DNA of 33,958 bases, taken from contig JASFUR010000001.1 of the NCBI GenBank assembly GCA_050050215.1, positions 1 through 33,958 on the forward strand, given 5' to 3'. The translations under genes were made by a program, and so were the position numbers. The DNA is from Gemmatimonadota bacterium. GTDB taxonomy: Bacteria; Gemmatimonadota; Gemmatimonadetes; Longimicrobiales; Gaopeijiaceae. Shown in pieces: positions 1,910-32,812 of this stretch (position 1 is the first letter of the stretch; each line of letters begins with the position of its first letter). Below the pieces are notes generated by a model, which saw nothing but the letters and a program-made list of their open reading frames with translations, ran no database searches and was not told the DNA's origin.

Positions 1910-2521
1910 ATGCACCAGCTCCTCGCCTGGATGGACCGGCTCGCGAGCCCGACGCTGTATCTCCTTCTCGGCGCCGGCTCGGCCGTCGAGAACGTCTTTC
2001 CGGCGATTCCGGCGGACACCTTCGTGGCCCTGGGCGGTCTCATGTCGGCGATCGGCGAACTGGAGGCGCGCTGGGTCTTCGTGGTCACCTGGCTCTGCAA
2101 CGTGGGCTCCGCCCTCGTGGTGTACCGACTCAGCTACCGGCATGGGCGCGGCTTTTTCGAGTCGGGCTGGGGACGACACCTGCTGAAGCCGTATCAGATG
2201 GACCGCATGGCGGAGTTCTACGACCGCTGGGGGACGCCGGCGCTCTTCCTGACTCGGTTCTTGCCGGGTGTGCGCTCGGTGACGCCGGTCTTCGCGGGTG
2301 TGACGCACCAGGGGTGGCTTCCGGTCGCGCTCCCGATCGCGACGGCCTCGGCGATCTGGTACGGGGGGCTCGTGTGGCTCGGGATGTTCGCGGGCAACAA
2401 CCTCGACCGGCTCGCCTCCCTCCTGGACGACATCAACCTGTGGCTCGGCGTGGTCGCCCTGGTCGTCATCCTGGCGTTGTTCGCATGGTGGTGGCACACT
2501 CGCCATCAACCGCATGACTGA
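1910..2521 (+). CDS. dedA: DedA family (VTT/SNARE-associated domain) inner-membrane protein
   Basis: ATG at 1910. 203 aa with the typical DedA N-terminus (LLLGAGSAVENVFPAIPADTFVALGG), a FLTRFLPGVRSVTPVFAG motif and several hydrophobic helices. Confidence 0.75.
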   Translation: MHQLLAWMDRLASPTLYLLLGAGSAVENVFPAIPADTFVALGGLMSAIGELEARWVFVVTWLCNVGSALVVYRLSYRHGRGFFESGWGRHLLKPYQMDRMAEFYDRWGTPALFLTRFLPGVRSVTPVFAGVTHQGWLPVALPIATASAIWYGGLVWLGMFAGNNLDRLASLLDDINLWLGVVALVVILALFAWWWHTRHQPHD

Positions 2522-3419
2522 CGACCTCCCGGCCTTCCGCTTCGAGCAGTTCCAGGACTACCTGGGCTACGAGCGCGGCCTCTCCGCCCGCACGGTGGCC
2601 GCCTACACGCGGGACCTGACCCGGTGGCGGACGTTCGTGGTCGGGCTCGGCGTGAAGGAGCCGGCCGACGTCACGCCCCGGCAGATGCGCGAATGGGTCT
2701 TCTCGTTGAAGGACGCCGGCCTCGCGCCGACATCGATCCGGCGGGCCCAGTCGGCGCTCCGGACCTACTTCGGCTTTCTGCTGGCCGAGAAGGCGGTCGC
2801 GGCCGATCCGACGGACCGCCTGGAAGCCCCCAGGGTCTCGCGAAAGCTGCCGGAGTTCCTCACGCTCGACGAGGTCGGACGGCTGCTCGACGCCCTGGAC
2901 GACTCCAAGGCCCTCTTCTGGAGGGACCGGTCGATCCTGGAAATGCTGTACGCCACCGGGGTGCGGGTCTCGGAGCTGGTCGAGCTGCCCCTCACGTCGC
3001 TCGATCTCGAGGAGGGCTTCGTGACGGTCTTCGGGAAGGGGTCGAAGGAGCGCCTGGTGCCGGTCGGGGAGCCGGCCCTAAGAGCCGTCGGGCGCTACCT
3101 GCGCGACGTGCGACCGAGGCTCGACAAGGGGAAGGGCGCCGGGCGGGTCTTCTTGAACGCGCGCGGCGGGCCGATGCGGCGGGAGTCGGTCTGGTCGATC
3201 GTGAAGAATGCGGCGAGTCGGGCCGGTATCGCCAAGACCGTCTCACCCCATACGTTGCGCCATACGTTCGCGACGCACCTCGTCGAGGGTGGAGCCGATC
3301 TCGCGGCGGTCCAGGAGCTGCTCGGCCACGCCGACATCGCCACGACCCAGATCTATACGCACCTGGACCGGGACTACCTCCGCGACGTGCACCGTCGCTT
3401 CCATCCGAGGAGCTCGTAA
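2514..3419 (+). CDS. xerD: Site-specific tyrosine recombinase, XerD-like (XerC/XerD family)
   Basis: 301 aa. The N-terminal SAM-like domain has LSARTVAAYTRDL. The catalytic domain has RDRSILEMLYATGVRVSEL...GKGSKERLVPVG...HTLRHTFATHLVEGGADLAAVQELLGHADIATTQIYTHL and ends in HPR, closely paralleling E. coli XerD as I recall it. The ATG at 2514 overlaps the dedA stop by 8 nt. XerD versus XerC cannot be settled without alignment. Confidence 0.85.
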   Translation: MTDDLPAFRFEQFQDYLGYERGLSARTVAAYTRDLTRWRTFVVGLGVKEPADVTPRQMREWVFSLKDAGLAPTSIRRAQSALRTYFGFLLAEKAVAADPTDRLEAPRVSRKLPEFLTLDEVGRLLDALDDSKALFWRDRSILEMLYATGVRVSELVELPLTSLDLEEGFVTVFGKGSKERLVPVGEPALRAVGRYLRDVRPRLDKGKGAGRVFLNARGGPMRRESVWSIVKNAASRAGIAKTVSPHTLRHTFATHLVEGGADLAAVQELLGHADIATTQIYTHLDRDYLRDVHRRFHPRSS

Positions 3420-3497: not shown

Positions 3498-5138
3498 CTA
3501 GAGAGGCACCCCCGACCGATCCCTGGGCGGCTGCGCGCCCGCGGAGGCGGCCCGACTCGCGCTCTCCTCGTCGGCCTCGCGGAATAGGTCGGCCTGGGTC
3601 TGCGCGCCTTGGAGCAGCCGGATCGCTTCGGAGAGCACCCTGTCGCGCTGAGCGCGGATCTCCGCCTCCGCACCGACGTCGTCCATGCGCGTGGCCACCG
3701 CGATCTCGGCCTGCCACCTCAGGTACTCGCGCACCTGGGGATCTTGCAGGAGGTCCTCGGGAAGGCCCTCCTCGCGCAGCGAGGCGATGAATCCCTCGAA
3801 CTCCTCCGGGGTGATCCCCGGGGCACCATCGGTGGCGCGCAACCGGGTGGCGGCGTCGAAGCCGATCTCCTGGAGCCGTTGACCCAGGGGGAACTGACTC
3901 TCGCTCACGAGACGCACGAACTCCTGCTCGGACGTATAGAGCGTGTCGTCCGCCACCGGGTAGTCGGGGAAGATCCCTCCCCCGTTGATCAGGTCCCGGC
4001 CGCCCGGCGTGGTCACGTGCGGGAGCGTGTCGATGTCCTCGGGCAGCGGACGCATCTGATTGTCACGCGGGCGCTGAAGCGAGCGACCGAGCGGAGTGAG
4101 CCACGATCCGGTGGTGAAGCGAAGGCGCCGATCGTGGGGCAGGGCCAGCACGGTCTGCACGACCCCCTTTCCGAACGTGCGCTCGCCCACGACGAGGGCT
4201 CGGTCGTAGTCCTGCAGCGCGCCCGCCAGGATCTCGGCGCCCGATGCGGTATACCCGTCCACCAGGACGACGATGGGCAGATCCGGCACGCGGACCGGCA
4301 TCCGGTCCATGTAGGAGTCCGTCTCGGGATTGTCCACGGAGCCGCCGGCGCGGCGTTGCACCGTGCTCGCCAGCGTGGAGCCTCTCTCCAGAAAGAGATC
4401 GGCCAAGTCCAGCGACTCGTCGAGGAATCCGCCGGGGTTGCGGCGCAGGTCGATGATCAGGCCCGGGGCGTCGGAGTAGTCCTCGAGCGCCTGGCTCATC
4501 TCCTGGGCGGCGCCACGGGCGACCCGGTCCATGATGACGTAGCCGATGCCGTTGCTCAGTGTGCCATGCTGGACCGCGGGCACGTGCACCTCGGCCCGGG
4601 TGATGTCGAAGGCGAGGGGCTGCTCGTAGCCGGAGCGACGGACCCGCACGTTCACGTCCGTGCCGGCCGGCCCGCGAATCGAGTCGGCCGCCGTCTGAGT
4701 ATCCCAGCTGGAGGCGTCGCGGTCGCCGACACCCACGATGACGTCGCCGACCATGATGCCCGCCTGGCTGGCGGGGAAACCCCGGAACACGGCCGTCACC
4801 GTAACCTCTTCGTTGAGCACGGTGATCTGCAGACCGATGCCGGAGTAGTTCCCGGTGGTCTCCTCCTCCCACTCCTGGGACTCCACCGCGGTGAACAGCG
4901 ATGCGTACGGATCGTCGAGGGACTCGATGAGCCCGTCGATCGCGGCCTCCCAGAGCATGGAGTCGCTGAACTCCTGCATATGCATCCGGGAGATGGCGCG
5001 GACGGCATCCGTGATGACTTCCGCCTCTTCGGGGCGGCGAGAGCTCTGCCTGTCGGCCGTCCCCCGGTCCTGCGCGGAGACACCCGGCACGGCGAGTGCC
5101 ATGGCGAGGATCAGTGCTGGAATCGTGCGAATCTTCAT
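3498..5138 (-). CDS. S41 family carboxy-terminal processing (tail-specific) peptidase with PDZ domain
   Basis: The preferred start is the ATG at 5138, giving [23 protein letters not shown], a signal peptide. The track start at 5171 adds 11 aa. Motifs: YSGIGLQI, a PDZ-like [29 protein letters not shown], and [27 protein letters not shown] (S41 Ser/Lys region). Confidence 0.85.
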   Translation of the reverse strand: [546 protein letters not shown]

Positions 5139-9078: not shown

Positions 9079-9657
9079 ATGCTGCTCGTCATCGACAACT
9101 ACGACTCCTTCACGTTCAACCTCGTCCAGTTCCTCGGGGACCTGGGTGCGGACCCGGTCGTGGTGCGCAACGACGAGAAGAGCGTCGACGAGCTGGTCGA
9201 TCTCGGCCCGGAGCGTGTGGTCGTCTCGCCGGGGCCGTGCACGCCCCGAGAAGCCGGCGTGAGCATCGAGGTCTTCCAGAAGCTGGGAGGGCAGGGCACA
9301 CCCATGCTCGGCGTCTGCCTGGGCCACCAGAGCCTGGGCGAGGCGTTCGGCGGCCGCACGGTTCGTGCACGCCGGATCATGCACGGCAAGACCGGGCCGG
9401 TGCGGCACGGTGGTGAAGGGATCTTCGAGGGCGTGCCTTCGCCCTTCGAGGTCGCGCGCTACCACTCGCTCGTGACCGACGCGGCCGTGCTGCCCGCCGA
9501 GCTCGAGCCGATGGCGTGGAGCACCGATCCCGCGGACGAAGGGGAGGTGCAGGCCATGCGGCACCGCGAGCTGCCGCTGTGGGGCGTGCAGTTCCACCCC
9601 GAGTCGCTCTTCAGCGAGCACGGAAAGACGATCCTCGCGAACTTCCTGACCCTCTGA
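9079..9657 (+). CDS. Anthranilate / aminodeoxychorismate synthase component II (class-I glutamine amidotransferase, TrpG/PabA)
   Basis: 192 aa with a classic N-terminus MLLVIDNYDSFTFNLVQ. It has the catalytic GVCLGHQ and the C-terminal GVQFHPES motifs. No trpE/pabB partner lies in the window, so TrpG versus PabA is left open. Confidence 0.9.
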   Translation: MLLVIDNYDSFTFNLVQFLGDLGADPVVVRNDEKSVDELVDLGPERVVVSPGPCTPREAGVSIEVFQKLGGQGTPMLGVCLGHQSLGEAFGGRTVRARRIMHGKTGPVRHGGEGIFEGVPSPFEVARYHSLVTDAAVLPAELEPMAWSTDPADEGEVQAMRHRELPLWGVQFHPESLFSEHGKTILANFLTL

Positions 9658-10219: not shown

Positions 10220-10323
10220 CGCGATCGCGACCCGTCACCTCGCACCTGGGATGTTGCGGTCGAGAAGCCCCGGGAAGGGCTGGCCGCAGGTTGACCCTCA
10301 CCCCCGGTTTCAGGTAGCTTCCC

Positions 10324-10374: not shown

Positions 10375-12818
<2,444 letters not shown>

Positions 12819-16732: not shown

Positions 16733-17593
16733 GTGGAGGCTTCATTGACGACGACGAACGGCAGCCGCCTGTGGGCCGAGGGGCTCACGAAGATCTATCG
16801 AGGGCGGAAAGTCGTGAACGACGTCGACATCAGCGTCGAGCAGGGCGAGATCGTCGGCCTGCTCGGTCCGAACGGCGCCGGGAAGACGACGACGTTCTAC
16901 ATGATGGTCGGGCTCATCCCTCCGGCCTCCGGCACGGTGCACCTGGACGACGACGATCTCACGCGGACGCCGATGTTCAAGCGCGCCCGACGGGGAATCG
17001 GCTACCTGGCTCAGGAGCCGTCGGTGTTCCGGAAGCTGACGGTCGAGGAGAACGTTCTCGCGATCCTCGAGACCATGGGGCTCTCCAAGGCCGACCAGAA
17101 GGCTCGGCTGAACGAGCTCCTCGACGAGCTCGGGCTGCTCGGCCTACGTGAGCACAAGGCGTATTCGCTGTCCGGCGGTGAGCGACGCAGGTTGGAGATC
17201 ACGCGGGCGCTCGTGCAGGAGCCGAAGTTCATGCTTCTCGACGAGCCCTTCGCGGGCATCGATCCCATCGCGGTGAACGACATCCAGGAGATCGTGCAGG
17301 GCCTCCGAGGGAAGGGGATCGGCGTCATCATCACCGACCACAACGTCGAGCAGACGCTCGAGATCGTGGACAGGGCCTACATCATGTACGACGGAAAGAT
17401 CGGCGTGAGCGGCACGGTGTCCGAGCTCGTCTGGAACGACGAGGTCGCCCAGGTCTATCTCGGCCCGATCCTGACGGCGCGCATGCGCCAGCGGTTCCCG
17501 GAGCCCGAGGTGGCCGCGGTCGCGCAGGTCACCGAGCCCATCGGGGCGCAGGACGCCGCCACGGGCTCCCCGGACGAAGTCTCCGCGGAATGA
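16733..17593 (+). CDS. lptB: LPS export ABC transporter ATP-binding protein
   Basis: GTG start at 16733. It has Walker [12 protein letters not shown], the signature [11 protein letters not shown], Walker [14 protein letters not shown] and an H-loop ITDHN. About 35 extra C-terminal residues follow the usual LptB end. Confidence 0.9.
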
Positions 17594-20097: not shown

Positions 20098-20170
20098 GCG
20101 ATTGGCGTCTCACGCGACACTGGGCCATCTGGACGGCTCCCGTAGGCGACCCTAGGGCCGAGGGCGACAC

Positions 20171-20896: not shown

Positions 20897-20938
20897 CGAG
20901 GGGGCCCGGCCGGGCGGCTTCGGCGGCCAGAGGCTGCA

Positions 20939-21601
20939 TCACGTGGCGCGCCGACATACGAAGCTGAACTGGTAGGTCCAGCGGAGGGGAATCACGGCCC
21001 GCGCGACCGTGCGCAGCGTGCGCGTCCAGAACCCGGCCGGCTTCGTGTGCCAGGGCTCCTTCTCGACACGCGCGACCCGGAGGCCTCGACGCTCGATGAG
21101 CGTGCGCCAGCCCGTCAGGTCGAGCAGCAACTCCTGCGCCTCCTGTTGCTCAGTCCCTCCGGAGCCGCGGAGGCGCCACACGATGAAGTCCGCGTTGGGG
21201 ACCACGAGCAAGGCGACGCCGTCCGGTCGGAGCACACGCGCTACCTCGGAAATGCCCACGGCGGGATCGAGGAAATGCTCGAGGCTGCCCAGGCACATGA
21301 CGACGTCGAACGCGGCGTCCCGGAAGGGGAGGGCCTCGCCTGCCGCGCGGGCGAGCCCCGCCGACGGGGTGCGGGCCCGCGCGAGCGCGACCGCGTTGGG
21401 GGCGATCTCCACGCCGAACGGGTCGAGCCCCACCTGCTCGGCATCACGCAACAGAAAGCCCTCACCGCATCCGATGTCGAGCAAGCGTCCCCCCGTGCGC
21501 GCCCCCACCGTGCGCAGGTACGTGCGGTAGTCGCGCATCGATCCCGGCGGATGCGTGTAGCGTCGGGTGTAGAACTCCTCGACGTCGCGCCGCGTGCTCA
21601 C
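20939..21601 (-). CDS. Class I SAM-dependent methyltransferase
   Basis: The real gene is the C-terminal 220 aa of track ORF 20939..22387. The GTG at 21601 overlaps the stop of the upstream gene (GTGA). It has SAM motif I LLDIGCGEGFLL and motif II DVVMCLGSLEH. The upstream part of the long ORF is Arg/Pro-rich and overlaps a better gene in another frame. Confidence 0.8.
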   Translation of the reverse strand: MSTRRDVEEFYTRRYTHPPGSMRDYRTYLRTVGARTGGRLLDIGCGEGFLLRDAEQVGLDPFGVEIAPNAVALARARTPSAGLARAAGEALPFRDAAFDVVMCLGSLEHFLDPAVGISEVARVLRPDGVALLVVPNADFIVWRLRGSGGTEQQEAQELLLDLTGWRTLIERRGLRVARVEKEPWHTKPAGFWTRTLRTVARAVIPLRWTYQFSFVCRRAT

Positions 21602-22497
21602 GCCCGCCTGCGCAGCAGCAGCAGGGCCGGGATGACCTCGCCTGTCATGGTCCACAGTCGTGCCCCGATCGCGACGGCCGCCGCCACCCCGAGCGGCATG
21701 ACACCGCTCAGCAACAGGGCGAGGGCTCCCTCCTTGGCGCCCAGGCCCGCCGGCGCGATGACGACGACGTATCCTGCGACGAACGAAAGCGCGAAGCTCG
21801 CGACGAGATGAGGGAACAGGGCGATGGGGGCATCGGTGAGGCTCGCCGTGAACGCGTGGAAGGCCGCGCCGTATACGAGCCACTGGCCCGTGCACATGAC
21901 CAGGAGCACCGCGGCGTCGACGGTAGTACCCCGCCAGGGGCGGAGCTCGCGCTTCAGCAGGCGCCCGGGAATCCGCAGAGCAGCTCGCACGAGCGCAGGA
22001 TGCAGGAGGAGCAGCGCCATCGGCGCGACCCAGCGAGCGACGACCAGCGGCGCCTCGAGGGCCGGGATCGCATCCAGGGGAAACAGGTAGACGCCCAGCA
22101 CCGATGCGGACAGCGTCGCGTACAGCATGTAGAGCGCCAGGGAGGTGATCGACGTCACGGCGTCGATCCCGAGGGCGCGGGCCATGTCGGCCACGCCGAC
22201 CAGCTGCCACACCTTGCCGGGGATGTAGCGGCCCAGGCTGGACACGAACCAGACGCGTGCGAGGGGAACGAGGGCGACGTCGTGATCGAAGGCGGCGAGG
22301 ACGCGTCGCCAGATGACGGCGCTTCCCATCAGGCCGCATAGGAGCAGGGCGATCGACAGGGCCAGCCATCCTCCTTCGAACGACCAATCGTAGGCGAGCA
22401 GCTCCTCGCGCCTTCCCACGACCGCGCGCACCAGAAAGAAGAGCGCTGCGACGATGAACAGCGTGCCGGCGAGGCGGCGCAGGAAGCTCCGGCTCAA
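21598..22497 (-). CDS. Flippase-like / lysylphosphatidylglycerol-synthase-TM-domain (UPF0104) family membrane protein
   Basis: This is the C-terminal 299 aa of track ORF 21598..23838. The TTG at 22497 overlaps the TGA of the upstream YfhO-like gene (TTGA). It has eight or so hydrophobic helices and the SLGRYIPGKVW and APAGLGAKEG motifs I associate with UPF0104/TIGR00374. Confidence 0.7.
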   Translation of the reverse strand: MSRSFLRRLAGTLFIVAALFFLVRAVVGRREELLAYDWSFEGGWLALSIALLLCGLMGSAVIWRRVLAAFDHDVALVPLARVWFVSSLGRYIPGKVWQLVGVADMARALGIDAVTSITSLALYMLYATLSASVLGVYLFPLDAIPALEAPLVVARWVAPMALLLLHPALVRAALRIPGRLLKRELRPWRGTTVDAAVLLVMCTGQWLVYGAAFHAFTASLTDAPIALFPHLVASFALSFVAGYVVVIAPAGLGAKEGALALLLSGVMPLGVAAAVAIGARLWTMTGEVIPALLLLRRRA

Positions 22498-24905
22498 GCG
22501 GATTCGGGGGGAGGGGCGGCCCGGCGCGCGCTCAGCACCGAGACGACCGTCACCACCAGGAGCACCCCGGCGGCCAGAAGCGTGATGACGAGCCCGATGC
22601 GGAGGGAGGGGGGCTCGAACGTGAACGTGACCGTGTGCGTTCCGGCCGGAATCGGAACGGCGCGGAAGGTGTGGTACGCCCGCAGGACCCGCGCCGGAGC
22701 GTCGTCGACGCGTGCGACCCAATCGGGATAGTAGTTGTCCGTCAGAACCAGGAAGGCGGGCTGATTGCTTTGGACCTCGACGTCGACCCTGGCGGGGTCG
22801 TGCCGTGTCACTCGAGCGTCGGCCTGCAGCGTGCTCGGGTCGGACCCACCCGAGACGGTATCGTAGACCAGGGCAGCCCGGAGCGGATCGAACCCTTCCT
22901 CCTGCATCGCCCTGAGCGCGCCGTCGGGCTCCGGCACCTGCTCCGCCGCGGCCACCACGAACGCTCTCGGCAATGCCGTCGTGTTCCGGTAGACGATGGC
23001 GGACCGCCCGTTTCGCGTTCGTCCTCGGAACACCGGCTCGAAGATCGGTGATTGGACGTTCTGCTGCGTCAGCACGTATCGGGCGTTCGCGAGGGCGAGG
23101 AACACGGGGTTGTTCATGTTGCTGAAGTCCGTGTACGAGGCCCCACTCGTGCCCAGGAACTCGTTGTAGGCCTGCAGCTGGTTGCCGTGCTCGCCCCCCA
23201 CGATCTCCAGATCGAAGAGCGTGAGGTAGTCGTCCTGCGGCAGGTCCGGAAGCACGAAGGTGCGGAAGGGACCATCCTGTGTGCTCAGGAACTCGACGAT
23301 CTCGTCCCGTGGAAAGACCTGATCGGGACCCGGGATCGCCTCGATGAACCGCCGATCGATGACCCAGAGGTCCGTCACGACGATGATGCCGATGAGGATC
23401 CCGGCTGCGCGGAGCGGCAGCTTGCCGCGCAGCCATGCCCACAAGGCGCCGAGGGTCACGCCCGTGAAGAGAACGAAGCGCCACGCGCCCGGAGGGTACG
23501 TCGGTCGCTGAGCACCCTGGGTCGAGGCGATCAGGCCCCAGAGCACCGCGACCCCGCCGGCAGCAAGCATGACCCGGGTCGCGGTGGCGAGCTCGCTGGA
23601 CGCGGCGGCACGCTCCGCCTTGCGTCGCCCCGACGCCGCCTCCTCGCGCAGCGTCGAGAGGCGATCGAGCGCGAGGCCCGCGACCACCACGATGCACAGG
23701 ATGAAGAGGAAGAAGGCCAGGGACGGCGCTCGAAACCGAGCCGTGCCCGGCAGCACCGCGTAGTAGAGCCGGTAGATCGGCGTGTATCCACCGAAGGCGA
23801 TGGTCAGTATGAACAGCGCGAGCCCGCCGAAGAACCACGCGACCCGGTCACGTCGCAGCACGTAGACGCCGACGACGGCGAGCAGCAACGCGAACGCGCC
23901 CAGGTACTCGGTGTGCAGCTTGAACGGGTTGGCGCCTCGGTACGCGTCGAGGATGCCGGCCTGCTCGGGTACGGCGAGCCCGGTGATCTCGACCGGCGGC
24001 ATCGACCACGAGGTTGCGTACTCGTAGCCGCGTCCGGGCCCCGCTCGCGGCGACGCGTCCACGTATCCGGCGAACGGGAGGAAGTTGACGGCGTTGAGCG
24101 CAAACGCCGCCGTGAGCATGAAGGCCGCTCCGGAAAGCTTCCTCACGACCCGCTCGGGGAAGCGGAAGAGGAGGAAGACTCCCCACAGACCACCCGCGAG
24201 GAGGACGTAGTAGGCGCTCTGTATCTGGAACGAGAGCATGGCCGAGCCCAGCACGAAGCCGCCCAGCGCGAACCAGCGTAGCCCACCCGTACGCACAGCC
24301 CGGTGGAGCGCGAAAAGGAAGAACGGCGCCAAGGTGGCCACGATCGTGCGCCCGTCGTGCCCCCCGTACACGTACGAGATCAGGTATCCCGAGAACATGA
24401 ACGAGAGACCCGTCAGCCACGCTGCGAAGCGCCTCGCCCCCAACTCGCGCAGCAGCGCGTACGTACCCCAGCCGGCGAGCACGAACTGCACGACGAAGAT
24501 GATCGCCAGGTGCTTGTACGTCGGCACGCCGATGAGCCGAAGGACGAGGGACACCGGGTAGTAGATGTCCATCGAGTTGGCGAAGTACGGCACGCCCCCG
24601 TACACGTACGGGATCCATTTCGGTAGCTCGCCCGCCTGGAACTGATGCGTCACGAACTCCTCGAAGATGTAGCTGATGGCGAGGTAGTCCGTGCCGAAGA
24701 TCTGCATCCCGGGCATGAGCGCCGGCATGAAGAGGGCGATGGCGAGGACGACGTAGCTGCCGATGAGCAGCAGGGGAGGGAAGAACTCGTCGCCGGAGTC
24801 GTCGCCCGACCGCTTCTTATCGCTCACGTACGGAGCTCCAGCTTCATGCCACACAACCCGACGGGAATCGCCGTCGACCGTGTCATCATCGATGTGCTCC
24901 GTCAA
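22494..24905 (-). CDS. YfhO-like polytopic membrane protein (putative GT-C fold glycosyltransferase)
   Basis: About 800 aa with many transmembrane helices in the first two thirds and a C-terminal extracytoplasmic domain. That domain ends LVLTDNYYPDWVARVDDAPARVLRAYHTFRAVPIPAGTHTVTFTFEP, then a final TM helix, a pattern I recognise from YfhO family proteins. The start is ambiguous: TTG at 24905, GTG at 24854 or GTG at 24827. Confidence 0.7.
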   Translation of the reverse strand: MTEHIDDDTVDGDSRRVVWHEAGAPYVSDKKRSGDDSGDEFFPPLLLIGSYVVLAIALFMPALMPGMQIFGTDYLAISYIFEEFVTHQFQAGELPKWIPYVYGGVPYFANSMDIYYPVSLVLRLIGVPTYKHLAIIFVVQFVLAGWGTYALLRELGARRFAAWLTGLSFMFSGYLISYVYGGHDGRTIVATLAPFFLFALHRAVRTGGLRWFALGGFVLGSAMLSFQIQSAYYVLLAGGLWGVFLLFRFPERVVRKLSGAAFMLTAAFALNAVNFLPFAGYVDASPRAGPGRGYEYATSWSMPPVEITGLAVPEQAGILDAYRGANPFKLHTEYLGAFALLLAVVGVYVLRRDRVAWFFGGLALFILTIAFGGYTPIYRLYYAVLPGTARFRAPSLAFFLFILCIVVVAGLALDRLSTLREEAASGRRKAERAAASSELATATRVMLAAGGVAVLWGLIASTQGAQRPTYPPGAWRFVLFTGVTLGALWAWLRGKLPLRAAGILIGIIVVTDLWVIDRRFIEAIPGPDQVFPRDEIVEFLSTQDGPFRTFVLPDLPQDDYLTLFDLEIVGGEHGNQLQAYNEFLGTSGASYTDFSNMNNPVFLALANARYVLTQQNVQSPIFEPVFRGRTRNGRSAIVYRNTTALPRAFVVAAAEQVPEPDGALRAMQEEGFDPLRAALVYDTVSGGSDPSTLQADARVTRHDPARVDVEVQSNQPAFLVLTDNYYPDWVARVDDAPARVLRAYHTFRAVPIPAGTHTVTFTFEPPSLRIGLVITLLAAGVLLVVTVVSVLSARRAAPPPESA

Positions 24906-26124
24906 GGCCGCGCGAGACGCGTCGGCCGCGCCCTTTCGACGCGACGTCCCGGTACAGTGCCTCGAGGCGCGGAACGACGGTCCTCCACGAGAACTCGTCG
25001 CGTACCAGGGCGCGACCCTGTGAGCCGAGGCGAGCGCGCAGCTCGGGGCACTCCGCGAGGCGTACGATCGCTTCCGCCAGGGCCGCCGTGTCGCCCGGCT
25101 CCACGAGGAGCCCGGTCTCGTCGTCCTTCACGACATCGACGATCCCGCCGGTGCGGCTCGCGATGGCCGGCTTGCCGTGCGCGAGGGCCTCGATGAGCAC
25201 CACGCCGAGGCCCTCCGTGTCTCCCTTTTCGTCGACGACGGCCGGCAGCACGAACGCGTCCGCGCTCCTGTAGCGGTCACGCAGGGTCGCGTCGTCCACG
25301 AACCCTTCGAAGGTCACGATGTCGTCCACTCCCGCGCTGCGAGCGTGCGCCTCCAGAGACTCGCGAAGCGGCCCGTCGCCCACGACGCGGAGCTCCACCG
25401 GGACCCGAGTCCGAGCCTGCGTGAGGGCATCGAGCAGGTAACGGACTCCCTTCCGGGCCACGAGACGGCCCACGAAGAGCAGGGAAAGGGGGCCGGAATC
25501 GAGTGACGGGGTGGCTTCGGTCTCCGATCCGACGTCGATCGAGCTGCCGAAGGCGATGCGGTGCACTTCACGGTCGTAGACCGCGCGGATCATGGCGCTC
25601 GTATAGGTGGAGTTGGCCGTGACCGCGTCGGAGCGGCGGATGATCCAGCGCAGCAGCGGCTTGAGTGGACGCAGCTGACGGTTCGTCCAGGTGAGGCCGA
25701 CGCCGTGAAAAGTGCAGATCACGGGAACCCTCGTGACGAGTCGTGCCGCGAAGCCGAGAAGAGCGTGCGGGATCGGCCAGTGGACGTGCACGGCGTCGAA
25801 TCGGCCGCGACGTACGATGCGCGCCGCGGCGAGGGCGCCCGAAGCCACATACCCCGGCACGAGGGCGAGGTAGGCGGGCCGGGATCGGATGCGATCGGGC
25901 GCCGTCTGGTCGTGGGTGAGGTCTTCGATCCTAGCCGGAGCGTAGCGGAACCGATGCACCCGCACGCCGTCGACCGTGTGGCTGCGGAGGCCACGGTAGG
26001 AGGGTGCTAGGACCTCCACGTCGATCCCGTCGGCGCGCAGCCGTTGAATCGTCTCGACGAGCCACGGGGTGACGACATCGTCTTGATGACGCTTGTAGGC
26101 CGTGACGATGTAGAGGATCTTCAC
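24886..26124 (-). CDS. Glycosyltransferase family 4 (GT-B fold, group 1 glycosyltransferase)
   Basis: The preferred GTG at 26124 gives VKILYIVTAYKR, a typical GT4 N-terminus. The track start at 26205 adds 27 Arg/Pro-rich residues. The C-terminal domain has the EX7E-type region PAVVDEKGDTEGLGVVLIEALAHGKPAIASRTGGIVDVV. Confidence 0.8.
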   Translation of the reverse strand: MKILYIVTAYKRHQDDVVTPWLVETIQRLRADGIDVEVLAPSYRGLRSHTVDGVRVHRFRYAPARIEDLTHDQTAPDRIRSRPAYLALVPGYVASGALAAARIVRRGRFDAVHVHWPIPHALLGFAARLVTRVPVICTFHGVGLTWTNRQLRPLKPLLRWIIRRSDAVTANSTYTSAMIRAVYDREVHRIAFGSSIDVGSETEATPSLDSGPLSLLFVGRLVARKGVRYLLDALTQARTRVPVELRVVGDGPLRESLEAHARSAGVDDIVTFEGFVDDATLRDRYRSADAFVLPAVVDEKGDTEGLGVVLIEALAHGKPAIASRTGGIVDVVKDDETGLLVEPGDTAALAEAIVRLAECPELRARLGSQGRALVRDEFSWRTVVPRLEALYRDVASKGRGRRVSRGLDGAHR

Positions 26125-26362
26125 GTGTCCGAGCCGCCGTGGGGTCGGTGAGTCCGCGCTTCGGCCCGGCAGCTGCCGGGGGACCAGGAGCGCGTCGCGT
26201 CTCATTCCGCGTTGAGGCCCATGAACCTAATCTGCGGGCCTCAGCGGAGCCAAAGGGCCCGCAACCCACGAGGCACGAAAACGTTGCGTTCCGCCCGCAG
26301 ATTCGCCATCGAATGGGCGGATTCCACTCCGGGTGAGCCCACGAGAGCGAGAAGGACCGGAC

Positions 26363-26881
26363 ATGGCCTGGGAAATCGAGCGACGCTTTCTGGTGCGCGT
26401 GGCCGATGCCATGTGGCTCCGTCTCGGCGAGGGGTACCACCTGCGACAGGGATACATCCGGAACGGTCAGCCATCGGTGAGGATCCGCATCGGAGAGCCC
26501 AGAGGGGCGGTCCTGACGTGCAAGAGCGGGAAGGGGATCCGGAGGGAAGAGCACGAGGCCGTCGTCCCCGACGAGCTCGCGACGGTCCTTTTCGAGGCGG
26601 CTGAGGATTGCGTCATCGAGAAGATCCGCTGGCACGTGGGGGACTGGGAACTGGATCGCTTTCTGGGCCCTTTGGACGGGCTCATCCTCATCGAGATCGA
26701 GCTCGAGTCCGAGGATCAGGCGATGCCTCCGGTCCCGGAGGGAGTCCATATCCTGCGTGAGGTCACAGACGATAAACGCTTTGTCAGTGGGTACTTAGCT
26801 CGTATGTCTGACAAGAAGCAGAGGAAGCTCGTGAAGAAGGTCTACAAGGAGGTGAAGGGATGGGACGGTCTCAGCGGCTAG
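26363..26881 (+). CDS. CYTH domain protein (triphosphate tunnel metalloenzyme family)
   Basis: The ATG at 26363 has GAAGGA 7 nt upstream. The N-terminal MAWEIERRFLV is the ExExK-type CYTH signature. Alternating charged beta strands follow (RIR, LTCK, EIELE). A Lys-rich C-terminal tail is encoded by a locally AT-richer stretch. Confidence 0.75.
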   Translation: MAWEIERRFLVRVADAMWLRLGEGYHLRQGYIRNGQPSVRIRIGEPRGAVLTCKSGKGIRREEHEAVVPDELATVLFEAAEDCVIEKIRWHVGDWELDRFLGPLDGLILIEIELESEDQAMPPVPEGVHILREVTDDKRFVSGYLARMSDKKQRKLVKKVYKEVKGWDGLSG

Positions 26882-27414
26882 CGGCGCTTCCGGCGGCGCT
26901 GCTGCTCGGGGGCTGCACGATGATCGGCTCTCAGGGCCGAATGGCACCCTCCGTGTCTTCGCGTCCTCCGGCTGGGGGGTCCGTCGCGTCGATTCCGGAC
27001 ATCATTCCGTCACCCGAGCCGCCGGCGGGCTCTGGCAACATGGTCTCGTACGAGCAGAACGGGCATCGATACCGTGTCCTCGACTGGTCCTACGGCTACG
27101 ACGAGCGCGGTAAGGCTTCTTGGTACGGGGAGGACTTCCACGGCCGCAACACGAGCAGCGGGGAGCCTTACGACATGTACAAGCTCACGGCCGCCCACCG
27201 GACGCTCCCGCTCCCGAGCTTCGTACGGGTCACCAACCTGGACAACGGGCAAGCCGTGGTGCTGCGGGTGAACGACCGTGGTCCGTTCGCCGACACGGAC
27301 TCCCGCATCATCGACGTGTCGTACGCGGCCGCCGTGCGCCTCGGAATGGTCGGCACCGGGACGGCCAACGTGCGCGTCGAGGCGATTCAGCCCTGGCAGT
27401 ACCGGGTCGAGTAG
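26860..27414 (+). CDS. rlpA: Septal-ring lytic transglycosylase RlpA family lipoprotein (DPBB domain)
   Basis: The ATG at 26860 is preceded by a strong AAGGAGGTG (26846-26854) that lies inside the CYTH gene. It has a lipobox LLLGGC and the motif series GKASWYGEDFHGRNTSSGEPYDMYKLTAAHRTLPLPSFVRVTNLDNGQAVVLRVNDRGPF, which is diagnostic for RlpA. Confidence 0.9.
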   Translation: MGRSQRLAALPAALLLGGCTMIGSQGRMAPSVSSRPPAGGSVASIPDIIPSPEPPAGSGNMVSYEQNGHRYRVLDWSYGYDERGKASWYGEDFHGRNTSSGEPYDMYKLTAAHRTLPLPSFVRVTNLDNGQAVVLRVNDRGPFADTDSRIIDVSYAAAVRLGMVGTGTANVRVEAIQPWQYRVE

Positions 27415-27600
27415 TCCGATCCCATCGGAAGGACCATCGCTCCTCCGGGGTCAGCGCAGGTCCGCAGGTGTTCGGGCCCTCCGGGGCGCATCCCTCCAGG
27501 CGCATGAGCATCCGAGTGTACGCGGTGGGGCAGTCGGATCACCCGATTCGGCGTGTTCCGGGGCCGCTACCCAGGTGGAGATCCCATGGGCTCGTTCTTA

Positions 27601-27628
27601 GAATAACATAATACATATTATACGAAGC
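27601..27628 (-). other. dif: dif-like XerC/XerD chromosome-dimer-resolution site (28 bp)
   Basis: The minus strand reads GCTTCGTATAA-TATGTA-TTATGTTATTC. E. coli dif is GGTGCGCATAA-TGTATA-TTATGTTAAAT. That gives 8/11 in the XerC arm, 4/6 in the spacer and 8/11 in the XerD arm, with TTATGTTA exact. It is the only strongly AT-rich patch in the window. It lies in the longest intergenic gap (383 bp), between convergent genes. Confidence 0.7.
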
Positions 27629-27698
27629 ACTCCGAGGTCGCATACGGAGTGGGATCCGGTACCAATGCCCCGGTGATCTTCGACGACGACCGAGTCGT

Positions 27699-27738
27699 GG
27701 CCCGCACGGACGAATCAAGCGTGGAGTCCGTGCGGGCC
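27699..27738. terminator. Perfect 13-bp inverted repeat hairpin downstream of the TPR gene (candidate terminator)
   Basis: GGCCCGCACGGAC (27699-27711) and GTCCGTGCGGGCC (27726-27738) are exact reverse complements with a 14-nt loop. It lies 60 nt beyond the stop of the minus-strand gene 27798..28490. There is no U-tract. Confidence 0.4.
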
Positions 27739-27797
27739 GACGAGTTGATCAGAGGCTGACAGCGCGGCACGGAGGCGCCGGCGCGATGGGAACGAGC

Positions 27798-28490
27798 CTA
27801 GGCCTGCCTCGCCGTCTCGATCTCCTCGATCCGCATCTGGTACTGGCCCCTCTGCGGGTCCGCCTCGTCGAGGCCGTCGAGAAGGCGCTGATAGAGGGTG
27901 ATGGCCCCGTCCAGATCGCCCTGGTCCCTGCGAATGCGGGCGGCCGCCTGGAGCGCGTCCCTCACCTGGAAATCCAGCTCCGACCGGTCGGCGATGCCGA
28001 GGTACACCTGAATCGCATCGTCCCACTCACCGTCTTCCTCGAGGGCGGCTCCGAGGAGCATCGCCGCCTGGAACTCGATGGGCCGACGCGGCGCCTCTCC
28101 CACGGGCCTCAGGACGGCCTCCGCCTGCTCGGGGCTGTCGTCCTTCAGGTAGAGCTCACCCAGCAGGAGCCTGGCCTCGGCCTCGAACGGCGTCCCCGCG
28201 GAGCGCTCGAGGAAGGTCGCGAGCTGCGTGCGGGCACCCTCGGTGTCGTTGATCGAGATGCTCTGGTAGATCTGCTCGAGCTCGGACGCCGCCTGGAGGT
28301 TCAGGTTGGCCCGGTAGTTCCGGTAGTAGACCATCCCGAGCACGCCGATCGCGATGACGACGATCAGGATGGTAAGCAGCTGCTGGTTGGCCTCGGCCCA
28401 CTTGCCGAGGTGCAGGACCTTCTCGACGAAGACGTCGTCGGGCTCGTTGCCCTTGTGTTTGCTACGCGTGCCTCGATGCCGCTGCGCCAT
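27798..28490 (-). CDS. YfgM-like membrane-anchored tetratricopeptide-repeat protein
   Basis: 230 aa. It has a short basic cytoplasmic N-terminus, one TM helix (LLTILIVVIAIGVLGMVYY), then TPR-like helical repeats (EARLLLGELYLKDDSPEQAEAVL...). The architecture matches YfgM/UPF0070. Confidence 0.65.
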   Translation of the reverse strand: MAQRHRGTRSKHKGNEPDDVFVEKVLHLGKWAEANQQLLTILIVVIAIGVLGMVYYRNYRANLNLQAASELEQIYQSISINDTEGARTQLATFLERSAGTPFEAEARLLLGELYLKDDSPEQAEAVLRPVGEAPRRPIEFQAAMLLGAALEEDGEWDDAIQVYLGIADRSELDFQVRDALQAAARIRRDQGDLDGAITLYQRLLDGLDEADPQRGQYQMRIEEIETARQA

Positions 28491-28553
28491 ACCGGGATCA
28501 CTCCGAGGGGTGGTCTGGAGAGCGCAAAAACCTAGATGTGGCGGTGACTCGGG

Positions 28554-29303
28554 TCAACGCGAGGTGCGCATGTCCCGTGGCGGGTCCGCCGGCGCTTCAC
28601 TCGGACGGTCGTAACCCGCCAGAGCCCACAACCCAGCGTGCTTCTGGATACAGACGCAACCGTTCGACGACGTGGAGAGAATGCCGTCGTAGAGCCAGTC
28701 GTTCAGAAGCGTCGTGACCGTGGCGCGGTGGGAGCCGGCGAGGTCGGCGAGCACCTGGTGCGTGAGGCGTTCGGGGATCTCGATCCGGCGGCCGTCCGGC
28801 TCTCCGCAGCGGTCGGCCACGTCGAGGAGCACCTCGGCGAGCCGCTGGGCGGCCGTGGGACCGCGCGAGCCCCCCTGCGCGTGACGCAACCGGTGCAGCT
28901 CCCGCTCGACGCCGTCGAGATACGCGTCGAGGCTCTTCCTCGCCGTCTTGAGGCCGTGGAGCACCCCCGTCTTCGGCAGCGGAAAGACCGTGCACGTGGC
29001 GCCTGCGATGGCGCCGTACCGGCGGTGTCCCTCGGTGAACGCTTCGTCGCCGAAGAGCTCCCAGGGGAGCGCCACACCCACGGTGCGCTCCGGTCTGCCC
29101 TTGTCCATCGCCGGGAGCACGAGGCGCATGTATCCCCGCTGGACGAGGAAGACCTCCCTGGCCGTATCCCCGGCGGCGTACAGCGAGCGTCCCTTCACCA
29201 GGGAGATGGGCTCCGCCTTCTTCACGAGTCGGTACAGCTTGCGATCGCGTGGCGGACTGAGACGAAACGGCAAGTTCGGAGGTCGGCCGAGGGTAGAGGG
29301 CAT
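28554..29303 (-). CDS. Crp/Fnr family transcriptional regulator
   Basis: The preferred ATG at 29303 gives 249 aa; the upstream part of track ORF 28554..29561 overlaps the DUF423 gene region. It has a cNMP-binding-like beta roll (GDTAREVFLVQRGYMRLVL...FGDEAF) and a C-terminal HTH (THQVLADLAGSHRATVTTLLNDW). There is no N-terminal Cys cluster, so it is not a classical FNR. Confidence 0.8.
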   Translation of the reverse strand: MPSTLGRPPNLPFRLSPPRDRKLYRLVKKAEPISLVKGRSLYAAGDTAREVFLVQRGYMRLVLPAMDKGRPERTVGVALPWELFGDEAFTEGHRRYGAIAGATCTVFPLPKTGVLHGLKTARKSLDAYLDGVERELHRLRHAQGGSRGPTAAQRLAEVLLDVADRCGEPDGRRIEIPERLTHQVLADLAGSHRATVTTLLNDWLYDGILSTSSNGCVCIQKHAGLWALAGYDRPSEAPADPPRDMRTSR

Positions 29304-29408
29304 GCATTCGGGCAGCGGACCAGAGACCCAGGATAATGGCGCGCCGCACGACTCGCGAGCGGCGGGGGCACACTGGCGCGGCCCCGCCCCGAATGCGAAC
29401 GTCCTCGC

Positions 29409-29783
29409 ATGACATCCGTACGCATGTTCTTCCTGCTCGGCTCGCTTCTCGGCGGCCTCGGCGTCGGGCTCGGCGCGTTCGGAGCTCACGGGCTTCAGCG
29501 GGTGCTGAGCGCCGACGATATCTCGACGTTCGAAATCGGCGTCCGCTACCAGATGTACCACGCGCTGGCGCTGCTGGCCGTGGCCTGGGCGGCATCCAGG
29601 TGGGAGTCCGGCGCGGTTCTCGCCTCGGGTTGGCTCTTCGTCGCCGGCATCGTGCTGTTCTCGGGGAGTCTCTACCTGCTGGCCCTGACCGGCTCGCGGT
29701 GGCTCGTCTGGATCACGCCCGTGGGGGGCCTGACGTTTCTGCTCGGTTGGGCCGCTCTCGCCTGGAGCGCCTTCCGCGGATGA
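29409..29783 (+). CDS. DUF423 (YgdD/TMEM256 family) small membrane protein
   Basis: 124 aa with four hydrophobic helices and the GAFGAHGL...YQMYHALALL motifs characteristic of DUF423. Confidence 0.8.
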   Translation: MTSVRMFFLLGSLLGGLGVGLGAFGAHGLQRVLSADDISTFEIGVRYQMYHALALLAVAWAASRWESGAVLASGWLFVAGIVLFSGSLYLLALTGSRWLVWITPVGGLTFLLGWAALAWSAFRG

Positions 29784-30547
29784 GCGGCGACCTCGAGCGC
29801 GCCCGTGATCTCCTGGGTGGCGCCGAGCGCATCGCGGTTCTCACGGGAGCGGGCGTGTCCGCCGAGTCGGGCGTGCCGACGTTCAGGGGCGCACAGGGGC
29901 TGTGGAAGTCCTACCGGCCCGAGGAGCTCGCCACCCCGCAGGCCTTCGCCCGCGATCCCAGGCTCGTCTGGGAGTGGTACGCCTGGCGACGGGCGTTCAT
30001 CGCCGAGTGCATGCCGAATGCCGCGCACACGGCCCTCGCGCGGCTGGCTCTGGGCGGCGACCGCGCGACCATCGTCACCCAGAACGTGGACGGACTCCAT
30101 CACCGGGCCGCGGAACAAGTCGCGGAGGACGATCAGCGACCCGAGGACGCTTATCCGCTCGAGGTCCACGGCGCCATCCACCGGGACCGCTGCGGCGAGT
30201 GCGGGCGCAGGAGCCCCGGCACGCAGGACGTCGACGCCACGGCCCTCGAGACCCTCCCGCGCTGCCCCGTCTGCTCGGGCCTGCTGCGCCCCGACGTGGT
30301 CTGGTTCGGAGAAGCGCTCGACGCCGACGTGATCGGGGCGGCGTTCGAAGCCGCCCGCGCCGCGGACGTCTGCCTGGTCGTGGGAACGAGCGCCATCGTG
30401 TACCCCGCGGCGTCGGTCCCCGAGGTCACCGTTCACGCCGGCGGGGCCGTCATCGAGGTCAACCCCGAATCCACGCCGCTGACCTCGCTCGCGTCCGTCA
30501 GCTTGCGGGGGCCCGCCGGGGAGCTCGTACCCGCGCTCCTCGCCTGA
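29780..30547 (+). CDS. cobB: NAD-dependent protein deacylase/deacetylase (Sir2 family, CobB-like)
   Basis: The ATG at 29780 overlaps the DUF423 TGA (ATGA). The upstream part of track ORF 29336..30547 is Arg-rich junk overlapping DUF423. Motifs: VLTGAGVSAESGVPTFRG...LW, TQNVDGLH, a Zn ribbon CGECG...CPVCSG, LRPDVVWFGE and VVGTSAIVYPAA. Confidence 0.9.
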   Translation: MSGDLERARDLLGGAERIAVLTGAGVSAESGVPTFRGAQGLWKSYRPEELATPQAFARDPRLVWEWYAWRRAFIAECMPNAAHTALARLALGGDRATIVTQNVDGLHHRAAEQVAEDDQRPEDAYPLEVHGAIHRDRCGECGRRSPGTQDVDATALETLPRCPVCSGLLRPDVVWFGEALDADVIGAAFEAARAADVCLVVGTSAIVYPAASVPEVTVHAGGAVIEVNPESTPLTSLASVSLRGPAGELVPALLA

Positions 30548-30766: not shown

Positions 30767-32812
30767 ATGAGGCACCTTCGTCCGTCCAGGATCCTCGCGC
30801 TGCTCCTTCTGGCCGCGTGCAACAGCGGGACGACGGTCGTGGAGGTGGAGGTGGGGAGCATCAACGTCTCTCCCGCCTCCGCTGCCCTCGAGGTGGGCCT
30901 GACGCTGCAGTTCACCGCGGAGGTGCTCGACGATTCCGGCTCACCCCTCACGGGCCGGACGGTCACGTGGGAGTCGAGCGTGCCGGGCGTCGCATCCATC
31001 GACTCGGACGGTCTGGCGACCGGGCTCACCGAGGGTACGACGACGATCACCGCCACGGTCGACGGCGTGAACGGGAGCCGGTCCCTCACGGTCTCGGCCG
31101 CGTCGTGCAGCACGGTCACGGACGTCACGCTGAGCCCCGGCGAGTTCGCCTCCTTCCCGGGGGACGAGTGCCTGCTCCTGCCGGCCGGCTCGGCCGGTGA
31201 CACGTACCGGGTCGCCCTGGCCCGGCCGACGCTCATCCCCATCGAGAGCAACGTCCCGGACGTGACGCTCTACATGGACCCCGTCGCGATGGCCGCGGCT
31301 CCGCCGGCCGGTGAGGGCCCACGCGCCGCGTCCGTTCCGGCAACGGTCCTGAGACGGGATCCCGGGGTGGGCACCATCGACATGAGTCGCTCGCTCCGCC
31401 ACCTCGAATGGCAGGACGCCACGCGTGCCTTCCACAACGAGCTCCGCCTCCGCGAGCGCAACCTGAGGTTCGGCCCGGACGCGGTGCTTCCTCGCACTCC
31501 TCCGGGCCTCGCGGGTGCACCCCCGGCGCTCGTGGATCCGCCGGCGACCGACAGCATGTTCCTCCAGCTCGACTGCAGCGACACGACGGCGTGGAAGCAC
31601 GTGACCCTCATCGCGTTCAGCAACACCCTGGCGGTCTACCAGGAGACCGCCGAGCGGGACACCGCGGCCATCAGCACCCAGGCGGCGCAGGAGCTCATCG
31701 ACTACCACGACGCCTACGTCCGCGACATGGTGCAGCAGTACTGGGGCTCCATCCCGGATACCGACGCGAACGGCCGCGTCAACGTGGTGACCACGCCGAA
31801 CCTCGGCGAGAACGTGGCGGCGGCCGTCTACAGCGGGGACTACATCCAGAGGAACGCGGGCTGCCCGAGCTCGAACGAGGGCGAGACCGTCTACTTCAAC
31901 GGTCCCCTGATGGCCGATCTCGCTCCGAGCACCGGCGAGGCGGACTACTACGCCCTCGGCACGATCGCCCACGAGATGAAGCACGTCGTCTCGCTCTACA
32001 ATGGCATCCAACGTCCTACGGGATTCAACGACATCTGGGTCGAGGAGGGGACGGCGGAGGTATCCCAGGAGATGTCGTCCCGTTACGCGTGGGCCGCGAA
32101 CGGCGGGCCTGCCGTCGGCGACCAGATCACGGCGTTCCAGCTCTACCAGGCGGCGACGGGCGGGCTCCTGGACCGGGAGATCACCGGCGTGATCGACGTG
32201 CTCGCGGGCACGGTGCGCTCGCTGGCCTCGCAGCCCAACAGCGTGATCACGGACCCCGACGGCGCGGCCGAGGGCCACTCGTTCTACTCGACCGGCTGGC
32301 ACTGGCATCGGTGGCTCGGCGACGCGTTCGGCGGTGCCTCCGAGGCCATGGACTCGGCGTTCTTCCGCGAGCTCACGGACCCCAACACCCCGGCCGGCGG
32401 CACCACGGGTGAGATCCAGCTGACCGGCGAGGGGAGCTTCGAGCAGCTCTTCGAGGACTTCGTGGTCGCGGTGAGCCTCCACGGGACCGGGTATACCGCG
32501 CCCTTCCCGATCGACACGTGGGACTTCGTGGGCGCGGCGAACATCTTCTCGAACCCCGACCCGCCGGGCGACTACCCCTGGCCGGTGACGGCGACCGAGT
32601 CTGGGAGCGGCGCCACGGAGACCAAGCAGCAGTGGGCTCCGTTCGGCACGGCGACCTACTCGAGCCCGATCGGGCCGTCGGGCGTGCGCTTCCACGACTT
32701 CCGCTCGTCGGGAACCAATGACGTGCAGATCCATGCGTCCGCGAACCTGGCGCAGCAGTGCGACGGCGCCGCGGATCGCTGCGACCGCATCATCGTGTCG
32801 CGGATCGACTGA
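30767..32812 (+). CDS. Lipoprotein with N-terminal bacterial Ig-like (Big_2) domain and a HExxH putative zinc-metallopeptidase domain
   Basis: The ATG at 30767 gives MRHLRPSRILALLLLAACNSG, a lipobox. The Big_2-like segment is VSPASAALEVGLTLQFTAEVLDDSGSPLTGRTVTWESSVPGVASIDSDGLATGLTEGTTTITATV. HEMKH occurs at LGTIAHEMKHVVSL, with a downstream WVEEGTAE as a possible third-ligand Glu. Confidence 0.65.
   Translation: MRHLRPSRILALLLLAACNSGTTVVEVEVGSINVSPASAALEVGLTLQFTAEVLDDSGSPLTGRTVTWESSVPGVASIDSDGLATGLTEGTTTITATVDGVNGSRSLTVSAASCSTVTDVTLSPGEFASFPGDECLLLPAGSAGDTYRVALARPTLIPIESNVPDVTLYMDPVAMAAAPPAGEGPRAASVPATVLRRDPGVGTIDMSRSLRHLEWQDATRAFHNELRLRERNLRFGPDAVLPRTPPGLAGAPPALVDPPATDSMFLQLDCSDTTAWKHVTLIAFSNTLAVYQETAERDTAAISTQAAQELIDYHDAYVRDMVQQYWGSIPDTDANGRVNVVTTPNLGENVAAAVYSGDYIQRNAGCPSSNEGETVYFNGPLMADLAPSTGEADYYALGTIAHEMKHVVSLYNGIQRPTGFNDIWVEEGTAEVSQEMSSRYAWAANGGPAVGDQITAFQLYQAATGGLLDREITGVIDVLAGTVRSLASQPNSVITDPDGAAEGHSFYSTGWHWHRWLGDAFGGASEAMDSAFFRELTDPNTPAGGTTGEIQLTGEGSFEQLFEDFVVAVSLHGTGYTAPFPIDTWDFVGAANIFSNPDPPGDYPWPVTATESGSGATETKQQWAPFGTATYSSPIGPSGVRFHDFRSSGTNDVQIHASANLAQQCDGAADRCDRIIVSRID

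Follow-up and report, generated by a model that had tools for sequence, protein, structure and literature searches.

A highly probable chromosomal dif site with converging KOPS motifs in an uncultured Gemmatimonadota bacterium

We consider it highly probable that the 28-mer at positions 27601–27628 of the 33,958-nucleotide stretch analysed here (the window) serves an uncultured Gemmatimonadota bacterium as its chromosomal dif site, the type of site at which the recombinases XerC and XerD resolve chromosome dimers when the cell divides. The assignment is based on the architecture of the 28-mer, its conservation relative to its flanks, its single copy in the available DNA, the switch in both KOPS polarity and GC skew that is seen there, and the xerD gene; its binding and cleavage, its dependence on FtsK, the existence of an XerC partner and the termination of replication forks nearby we infer by analogy. 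The source organism is represented by a fragmentary MAG (GCA_050118455.1) and by short metagenomic contigs (4.6–16.3 kb; none greater than 20–50 kb); searching with the rightmost gene led only to a contig of 3 kb.

The site is GAATAACATAATACATATTATACGAAGC on the plus strand of the window and reads GCTTCGTATAA-TATGTA-TTATGTTATTC on the minus strand, with an 11-6-11 layout and an inner ATAA/TTAT dyad. Its parts are:

27601..27611, minus strand, putative XerD-binding arm of dif (minus strand TTATGTTATTC; contains the exact E. coli XerD-arm core TTATGTTA)
27612..27617, minus strand, central 6-bp spacer, the expected place of strand exchange (minus strand TATGTA)
27618..27628, minus strand, putative XerC-binding arm of dif (minus strand GCTTCGTATAA; 8/11 against the E. 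coli XerC arm)

The 28-mer agrees with E. coli dif at 20/28 positions, those of the exact TTATGTTA core among them, and is equally similar to B. subtilis dif (20/28). The runner-up 28-mer on either strand of the whole window matches E. coli dif at 16/28, and the best match in 200 simulated windows (first-order Markov) is 17/28. The earlier note on this DNA had singled out the 28-mer as the only strongly AT-rich patch in the window and had pointed to its dif layout, its 20/28 match to E. coli dif, the XerD-arm core and the dyad, all of which is confirmed; 28-nt stretches with ten or fewer G+C form one cluster in the whole window, which is 68% GC, with starts at 27585–27609 and a minimum of 4 G+C. 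The site resembles the E. coli dif, XerC/XerD and FtsK-KOPS system in its 28-bp length, 11-6-11 layout, TTATGTTA core, ATAA/TTAT dyad and accompanying XerD orthologue, as well as in the convergence of GGGNAGGG motifs upon it (see below), and differs in the XerC arm, which has TTCGTATAA where E. coli has TGCGCATAA, and in the outer XerD-arm positions, which are TTC here and AAT in E. coli. The TTC at the last three positions of the XerD arm departs from the usual A-x-T and counts against dif. The B. subtilis site (CodV/RipX) has in common with the window an XerC arm of the ACTTCC/ACTTCG type, but its arm reads TAGAA and GTAAACT. Within the same phylum, Kono et al. 2011 (PMC3025954), whose dif predictions cover 641 organisms from 16 phyla, list for Gemmatimonas aurantiaca T-27 the sequence AATGCGTATAATACATGTTATGTAAACT, which is separated from the GC-skew shift point by 0.011% of a replichore (their Additional file 2). 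The window site is identical to it at 18/28 positions and shares with it the stretch CGTATAAT, whereas the XerD arm TTATGTAAACT and the spacer TACATG of the T-27 site are different.

No second copy of the 28-mer is present in the 34-kb window even when three mismatches are allowed, and with a position weight matrix built from related sites the 28-mer scores 50.6 bits while the next non-overlapping match in the window scores -4.7 bits. A search for repeats nearby likewise gave no second copy and no notable flanking direct repeats, and each locus fetched from a relative (10 kb to either side) contains one dif-like site. Membership in an IMEX-flanking pair or pdif module, in which two or more dif-like sites surround a cargo, was rejected on the runner-up score in the window. 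Scans of the window with Rfam (gathering thresholds) and for tRNAs gave no RNA genes, and an RNA-gene explanation of the 28-mer was dropped because of this.

The site lies between two convergent genes, and the window also encodes a tyrosine recombinase:

2514..3419, plus strand, xerD, tyrosine recombinase (TIGR02225 XerD equivalog, 347.1 bits against a cut-off of 329.6)
26860..27414, plus strand, rlpA-family gene, left neighbour of the site (Pfam DPBB_1, NCBIfam TIGR00413), adjoining it in most relatives
27798..28490, minus strand, YfgM-like TPR_21 gene, right neighbour of the site (Pfam TPR_21; homologues belong to the YfgM family at NCBI), adjoining it in most relatives

The gap that holds the site was earlier said to be the largest intergenic gap and to separate convergent rlpA and TPR genes; it measures 383 nt and is the largest seen, on the basis of ORF-based gene calls and the gene calls of same-species contigs. 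Proteins homologous to the TPR protein carry YfgM-family or TPR labels and come from Gemmatimonadales, Longimicrobiales and Gemmatimonadetes MAGs. Elsewhere the window contains nadE, pyrG, a kdsB/kdsA-lptC region, an ABC ATPase gene, rpoN and a glycosyltransferase cluster; these remaining genes are chromosomal housekeeping genes, and the window is therefore chromosome and not plasmid. A plasmid multimer-resolution site of the cer/psi type, with about 180 bp of accessory sequence, was rejected on the chromosomal housekeeping genes and the unconserved flanks. We note that a perfect 13-nt GC-rich inverted repeat (GGCCCGCACGGAC and GTCCGTGCGGGCC, at 27699–27711 and 27726–27738, with a 14-nt loop and no T-tract) is situated between dif and the TPR stop codon, and the repeat (27699–27738) may stop transcription of the TPR gene.

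The XerD-like recombinase that had been noticed 24 kb away holds up as an XerD equivalog above the TIGR02225 cut-off; its gene lies 24.2 kb from the site. Its product has Phage_integrase and SAM-like N-terminal domains (Pfam), and the best solved structure for it is E. coli XerD (1a0p, E = 1.1e-58). The XerS model gives it 104 bits, below the cut-off of 267, and a single-recombinase site (XerS/difSL or XerH/difH) was rejected on the 6-bp spacer, the canonical arms and the nearby XerD equivalog. Neither xerC nor ftsK is present in the window, and a tblastn search with XerD of 2.0 Mb of fetched DNA gave no Xer paralogue in Gemmatimonadota loci, the only paralogues being in low-GC contigs mostly labelled Bacilli or Mollicutes. 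In these low-GC contigs (loci L094–L098, L121, L128, L129, L131, L134, L154, L173 and L179, three of them labelled Muribaculaceae or Clostridiales and the others mostly Bacilli or Mollicutes) a gene for an Xer-type recombinase 32–37% identical to the window XerD lies no more than a few kb from the dif-like site, compared with the 24 kb between xerD and dif in the window.

The footprint of conservation was measured in 21 non-redundant Gemmatimonadota sites with their 40-nt flanks. The mean top-base fraction is 0.90 in the 28-mer and 0.41 and 0.43 in the two flanks, so the proposal that relatives would keep the 28-mer and not its surroundings is borne out; in all sequence available the 28-mer is single copy. 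The consensus of the 21 sites is ACTTCGTATAATATATATTATGTTAAGT. The core TTATGTTA is invariant in 21/21 and the TTCGTATAA of the XerC arm is conserved at 0.90–1.00 per column; the arms are nearly invariant, and variation falls mostly in the middle of the spacer (positions 2–4) and at the outermost arm positions, including the outer three of the XerD arm. Spacer positions 1, 5 and 6 are conserved or nearly so around a variable middle (TATATA, TACATA, TAAGTA, TGGTTA, TGTGCA), and a variable mid-spacer is the usual pattern in dif sites. Conserved arms with a variable spacer and unconserved flanks are the footprint that would be expected of dif. The proteins encoded next to the site have diverged to 41–74% identity among the relatives.

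Relatives fetched by way of their TPR homologues (10 kb of flank on either side) have the same rlpA, site, TPR arrangement. A metagenome scan with RlpA gave four diverged relatives (RlpA 49–72% identical), and in every one of them a dif-like 28-mer follows rlpA closely and in the same orientation; of the 80 more distant metagenome loci that RlpA retrieved (42–64% identity), the majority lack a dif-like site in the vicinity and are uninformative here. When 185,579 genomes, one per bacterial species, were scanned with the inner 23-nt pattern TTCSTATAATNNNTATTATGTTA, at least 120 stretches from many phyla matched, once each. The free positions in the matches listed mostly read like a canonical XerD arm (TTATGTTAA, then A/C/G, then T), which indicates that the pattern retrieves dif-type sites across phyla; Acinetobacter sites are among these matches. 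Nine Gemmatimonadota/Longimicrobiales MAGs are also among the matches listed, and in eight of the nine a TPR or RlpA homologue, usually both, was found by tblastn in the 8-kb stretch that holds the site. In the complete Longimicrobiales chromosome OZ220481.1 (locus L106) the same site is found between an unknown 475-aa ORF and a methyltransferase gene, and its presence in this unrelated context indicates that it is conserved independently of its usual neighbours. The pattern matches at about 51% and 50% of two complete Methylophilaceae genomes and at 44% of the Longimicrobiales chromosome, positions that depend on where the records start and carry little weight.

The octamer GGGNAGGG is the consensus of the E. 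coli KOPS motif that orients FtsK. To the left of the site the window has 11 copies on the plus strand and one on the minus strand, and to the right none on the plus strand and one on the minus strand:

3033..3040, plus strand, GGGNAGGG toward the site
3129..3136, plus strand, GGGNAGGG toward the site
3975..3982, minus strand, GGGNAGGG away from the site, the sole such copy in the window
4137..4144, plus strand, GGGNAGGG toward the site, antisense to a minus-strand S41 peptidase gene
9289..9296, plus strand, GGGNAGGG toward the site
10272..10279, plus strand, GGGNAGGG toward the site
11226..11233, plus strand, GGGNAGGG toward the site
17309..17316, plus strand, GGGNAGGG toward the site
21326..21333, plus strand, GGGNAGGG toward the site, within a block of minus-strand genes
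22508..22515, plus strand, GGGNAGGG toward the site, inside a minus-strand YfhO-like ORF
24773..24780, plus strand, GGGNAGGG toward the site, antisense to a YfhO-like gene
26528..26535, plus strand, GGGNAGGG toward the site, at a position common to several relatives
32501..32508, minus strand, GGGNAGGG right of the site and toward it, antisense to a Big_2 gene

A same-species contig that reaches further to the right adds two more copies, both aimed back at the site. In a scan of octamer polarity in which no motif was assumed beforehand (the window plus loci L009–L222; 16 loci, 227 kb pooled), GGGNAGGG ranks first of 7013 octamer families, with 85 copies toward the site and 4 away, counts that are not independent because most of the loci are syntenic and many of the motif positions are homologous. 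It is also first of 3508 families in the source species alone (14 toward, 1 away), and in an overlapping pool of loci the counts by side are 52:4 on the left and 38:0 on the right. Copies antisense to the local gene, according to rough gene calls, still point to the site by 10:1, and the polarity is thus not a coding-strand effect. Around the Gemmatimonadota sites the motif has a density of about one copy per 2.6 kb, some five times that in E. coli (one per 12.6 kb; PMC3384302), whereas SpoIIIE, the FtsK-family translocase of B. subtilis, reads GAGAAGGG and not GGGNAGGG (PMC3384302). Convergence of FtsK-orienting polar sequences is what functionally defines dif (PMC3384302, PMC13342612).

Pooled GC skew switches sign at the site, from +0.065 over the last kb on its left to -0.025 over the first kb on its right, and the left skew exceeds the right skew in 16/16 loci; part of this change could be a coding-strand effect, because the flanking genes are convergent and syntenic in most relatives. 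In the window by itself the skew is weak (left +0.014, z = 1.9; right -0.006), and the maximum of its cumulative GC skew, about 2 kb right of the site, is weakly informative. The strand-polarity switch that had been anticipated at the site is thus seen, as judged from local loci, both in the convergence of GGGNAGGG and in the sign of the pooled skew. The further statement in the earlier note that the site fixes the terminus and the replichore boundaries is kept for the KOPS and replichore junction and is too strong for the exact point at which forks meet, because dif need not mark that point (PMC3025954; PMC13342612). Whether forks terminate near dif is the main residual uncertainty. That this is a genuine XerCD-dif and a junction of KOPS polarity, but with the forks meeting elsewhere and no replication termination in or near the window, seems to us rather improbable. 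Such an arrangement would agree with the conclusion of Kono et al. 2011 (PMC3025954) that replication ends close to dif and not at it, with replicons in which dif is offset from the coverage minimum (PMC13342612), and with the offset peak and weak skew of the window; it agrees less well with the pooled skew, which switches at the site itself, and with G. aurantiaca, the one Gemmatimonadota genome analysed in the literature, where no more than 0.011% of a replichore separates dif from the skew shift point.

If the dif site functions as in E. coli, XerC would occupy the GCTTCGTATAA arm and XerD (encoded at 2514–3419) the TTATGTTATTC arm. Homologous recombination would fuse sister chromosomes into a dimer, septal FtsK would read the polar GGGNAGGG motifs and pump the DNA toward their point of convergence and, on reaching XerCD at the two copies of dif, would activate XerD; two pairs of strand exchanges across the 6-bp TATGTA would then resolve the dimer.

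Two other readings of the 28-mer were weighed against a chromosomal dif. It is very unlikely to be a secondary Xer site of a mobile element, an IMEX scar or a pdif-type boundary, and not the principal dif. The pdif sites and dif modules of Acinetobacter and the attachment sites of IMEX elements (CTX, TLC) do have arms of the XerC/XerD-binding type, the Acinetobacter modules are mobile and flanked by dif-like sites that the same pattern matches, many IMG/VR viral contigs carry dif-like sites, and two relatives (L210, L220) have insertions right next to the site while a third (L223) has a hybrid half site. However, sites of those elements are paired or multiple around mobile cargo, while here a single dif-like site is found in 34 kb, and one in the 10 kb to either side in each relative, in chromosomal surroundings that are conserved; relatives across the phylum carry it at the orthologous position, KOPS polarity converges on the 28-mer, and the surroundings are the housekeeping genes pyrG, kdsA/kdsB-lptC, ABC ATPase, rpoN and nadE. 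The chance that the 28-mer is an AT-rich regulatory element, a promoter -10 box or a transcription stop between convergent genes, is slighter still and close to negligible. Its position between convergent genes, a perfect TATAAT on the minus strand and one weak sigma-70-like match overlapping its left edge would fit such an element, but conservation extends to about 24 of 28 positions, including the whole TTATGTTA arm, far beyond a -10 hexamer, there is no gene downstream in either direction, a terminator scan at the site gave no terminator-like structure, the same 28-mer occurs in a non-syntenic context, and the KOPS convergence would be left unexplained.

Insertions beside dif were seen in several relatives. 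In L223 (GCA_050181335.1, JBFXDG010000020.1) the expected dif position, 11859–11886, is occupied by ACTTCGCATAA-TAGATA-GTGTGTCTGCA, a half site that retains the XerC arm and spacer but has another sequence in place of the XerD arm. From there to the end of the contig (11887–19654) extends a lower-GC island of at least 7.8 kb with unknown ORFs on one strand, one of which is endolysin-like (phrog_894, E = 5.6e-11). The L223 locus has no rlpA gene, and the half site is where its sister contig L224 breaks off. Half site and island together look like the remains expected of Xer-mediated integration of an IMEX-like element, and L223 is one indirect indication of recombination in this phylum. A scan of viral contigs for one L223-island protein gave no relative, and among the many dif-like sites that a dif-pattern scan of IMG/VR viral contigs returned none was clearly from Gemmatimonadota. 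In L210 a 2.1-kb block (10700–12778) with a 143-aa ORF, a split ECF sigma factor gene and a methyltransferase gene lies between the yfgM-like gene and dif, and in L220 a 171-aa gene (10770–11715) lies between dif and rlpA; neither insertion is accompanied by a second dif-like site.

A dif site in Gemmatimonadota is an ordinary finding that was already predicted for the phylum, the site itself being well supported; the novelty that the earlier note attached to dif in a poorly studied phylum was overrated, the G. aurantiaca T-27 site having been predicted in 2011 at the GC-skew shift point. Mildly new are that the octamer with the strongest polarity in Gemmatimonadota is the KOPS word of E. coli, that the rlpA-dif-yfgM neighbourhood is, judging from gene order, conserved across the phylum, and that a relative carries a candidate Xer-exploiting element. 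We regard it as an even call whether all three parts of a broader reading hold jointly, namely that Gemmatimonadota share the E. coli FtsK word GGGNAGGG at about five times its density there, that a fixed rlpA-dif-yfgM-like locus extends across much of the phylum, and that L223 contains the first Xer-exploiting integrative element of the phylum, with a TLC-like hybrid site that has no XerD arm. If so, FtsK-gamma specificity would be conserved far outside the Proteobacteria and the terminus would be unusually stable. The site provides a reliable replichore-junction landmark for orienting and scaffolding fragmentary Gemmatimonadota MAGs, can anchor coverage-based estimates of growth rate, and adds to the evidence that a little-studied high-GC phylum shares the XerCD-dif-KOPS architecture and the KOPS word of E. 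coli itself; knowledge of the mechanism of chromosome-dimer resolution is unchanged by it.

Gene order on both sides of dif is kept over about 20 kb between positions 19138–30547 of the window and the diverged Gemmatimonadota loci L212, L216, L218, L220 and L222. On the left it runs rpoN, glycosyltransferases, YfhO-like, LPG-synthase-like, methyltransferase, CYTH and rlpA, then dif, and on the right yfgM-like, Crp-like, (MFS), DUF423, Sir2 and Big_2; this order points to an unusually stable terminus neighbourhood. L212 and L214 are 99.72% identical over 20.7 kb (43 mismatches), with the site at 10757–10784. Two of their differences fall inside the 6-bp spacer (TATGTA and TGTGCA) while the arms and the 40-nt flanks are identical, a change in the spacer that is far above what the background rate predicts.
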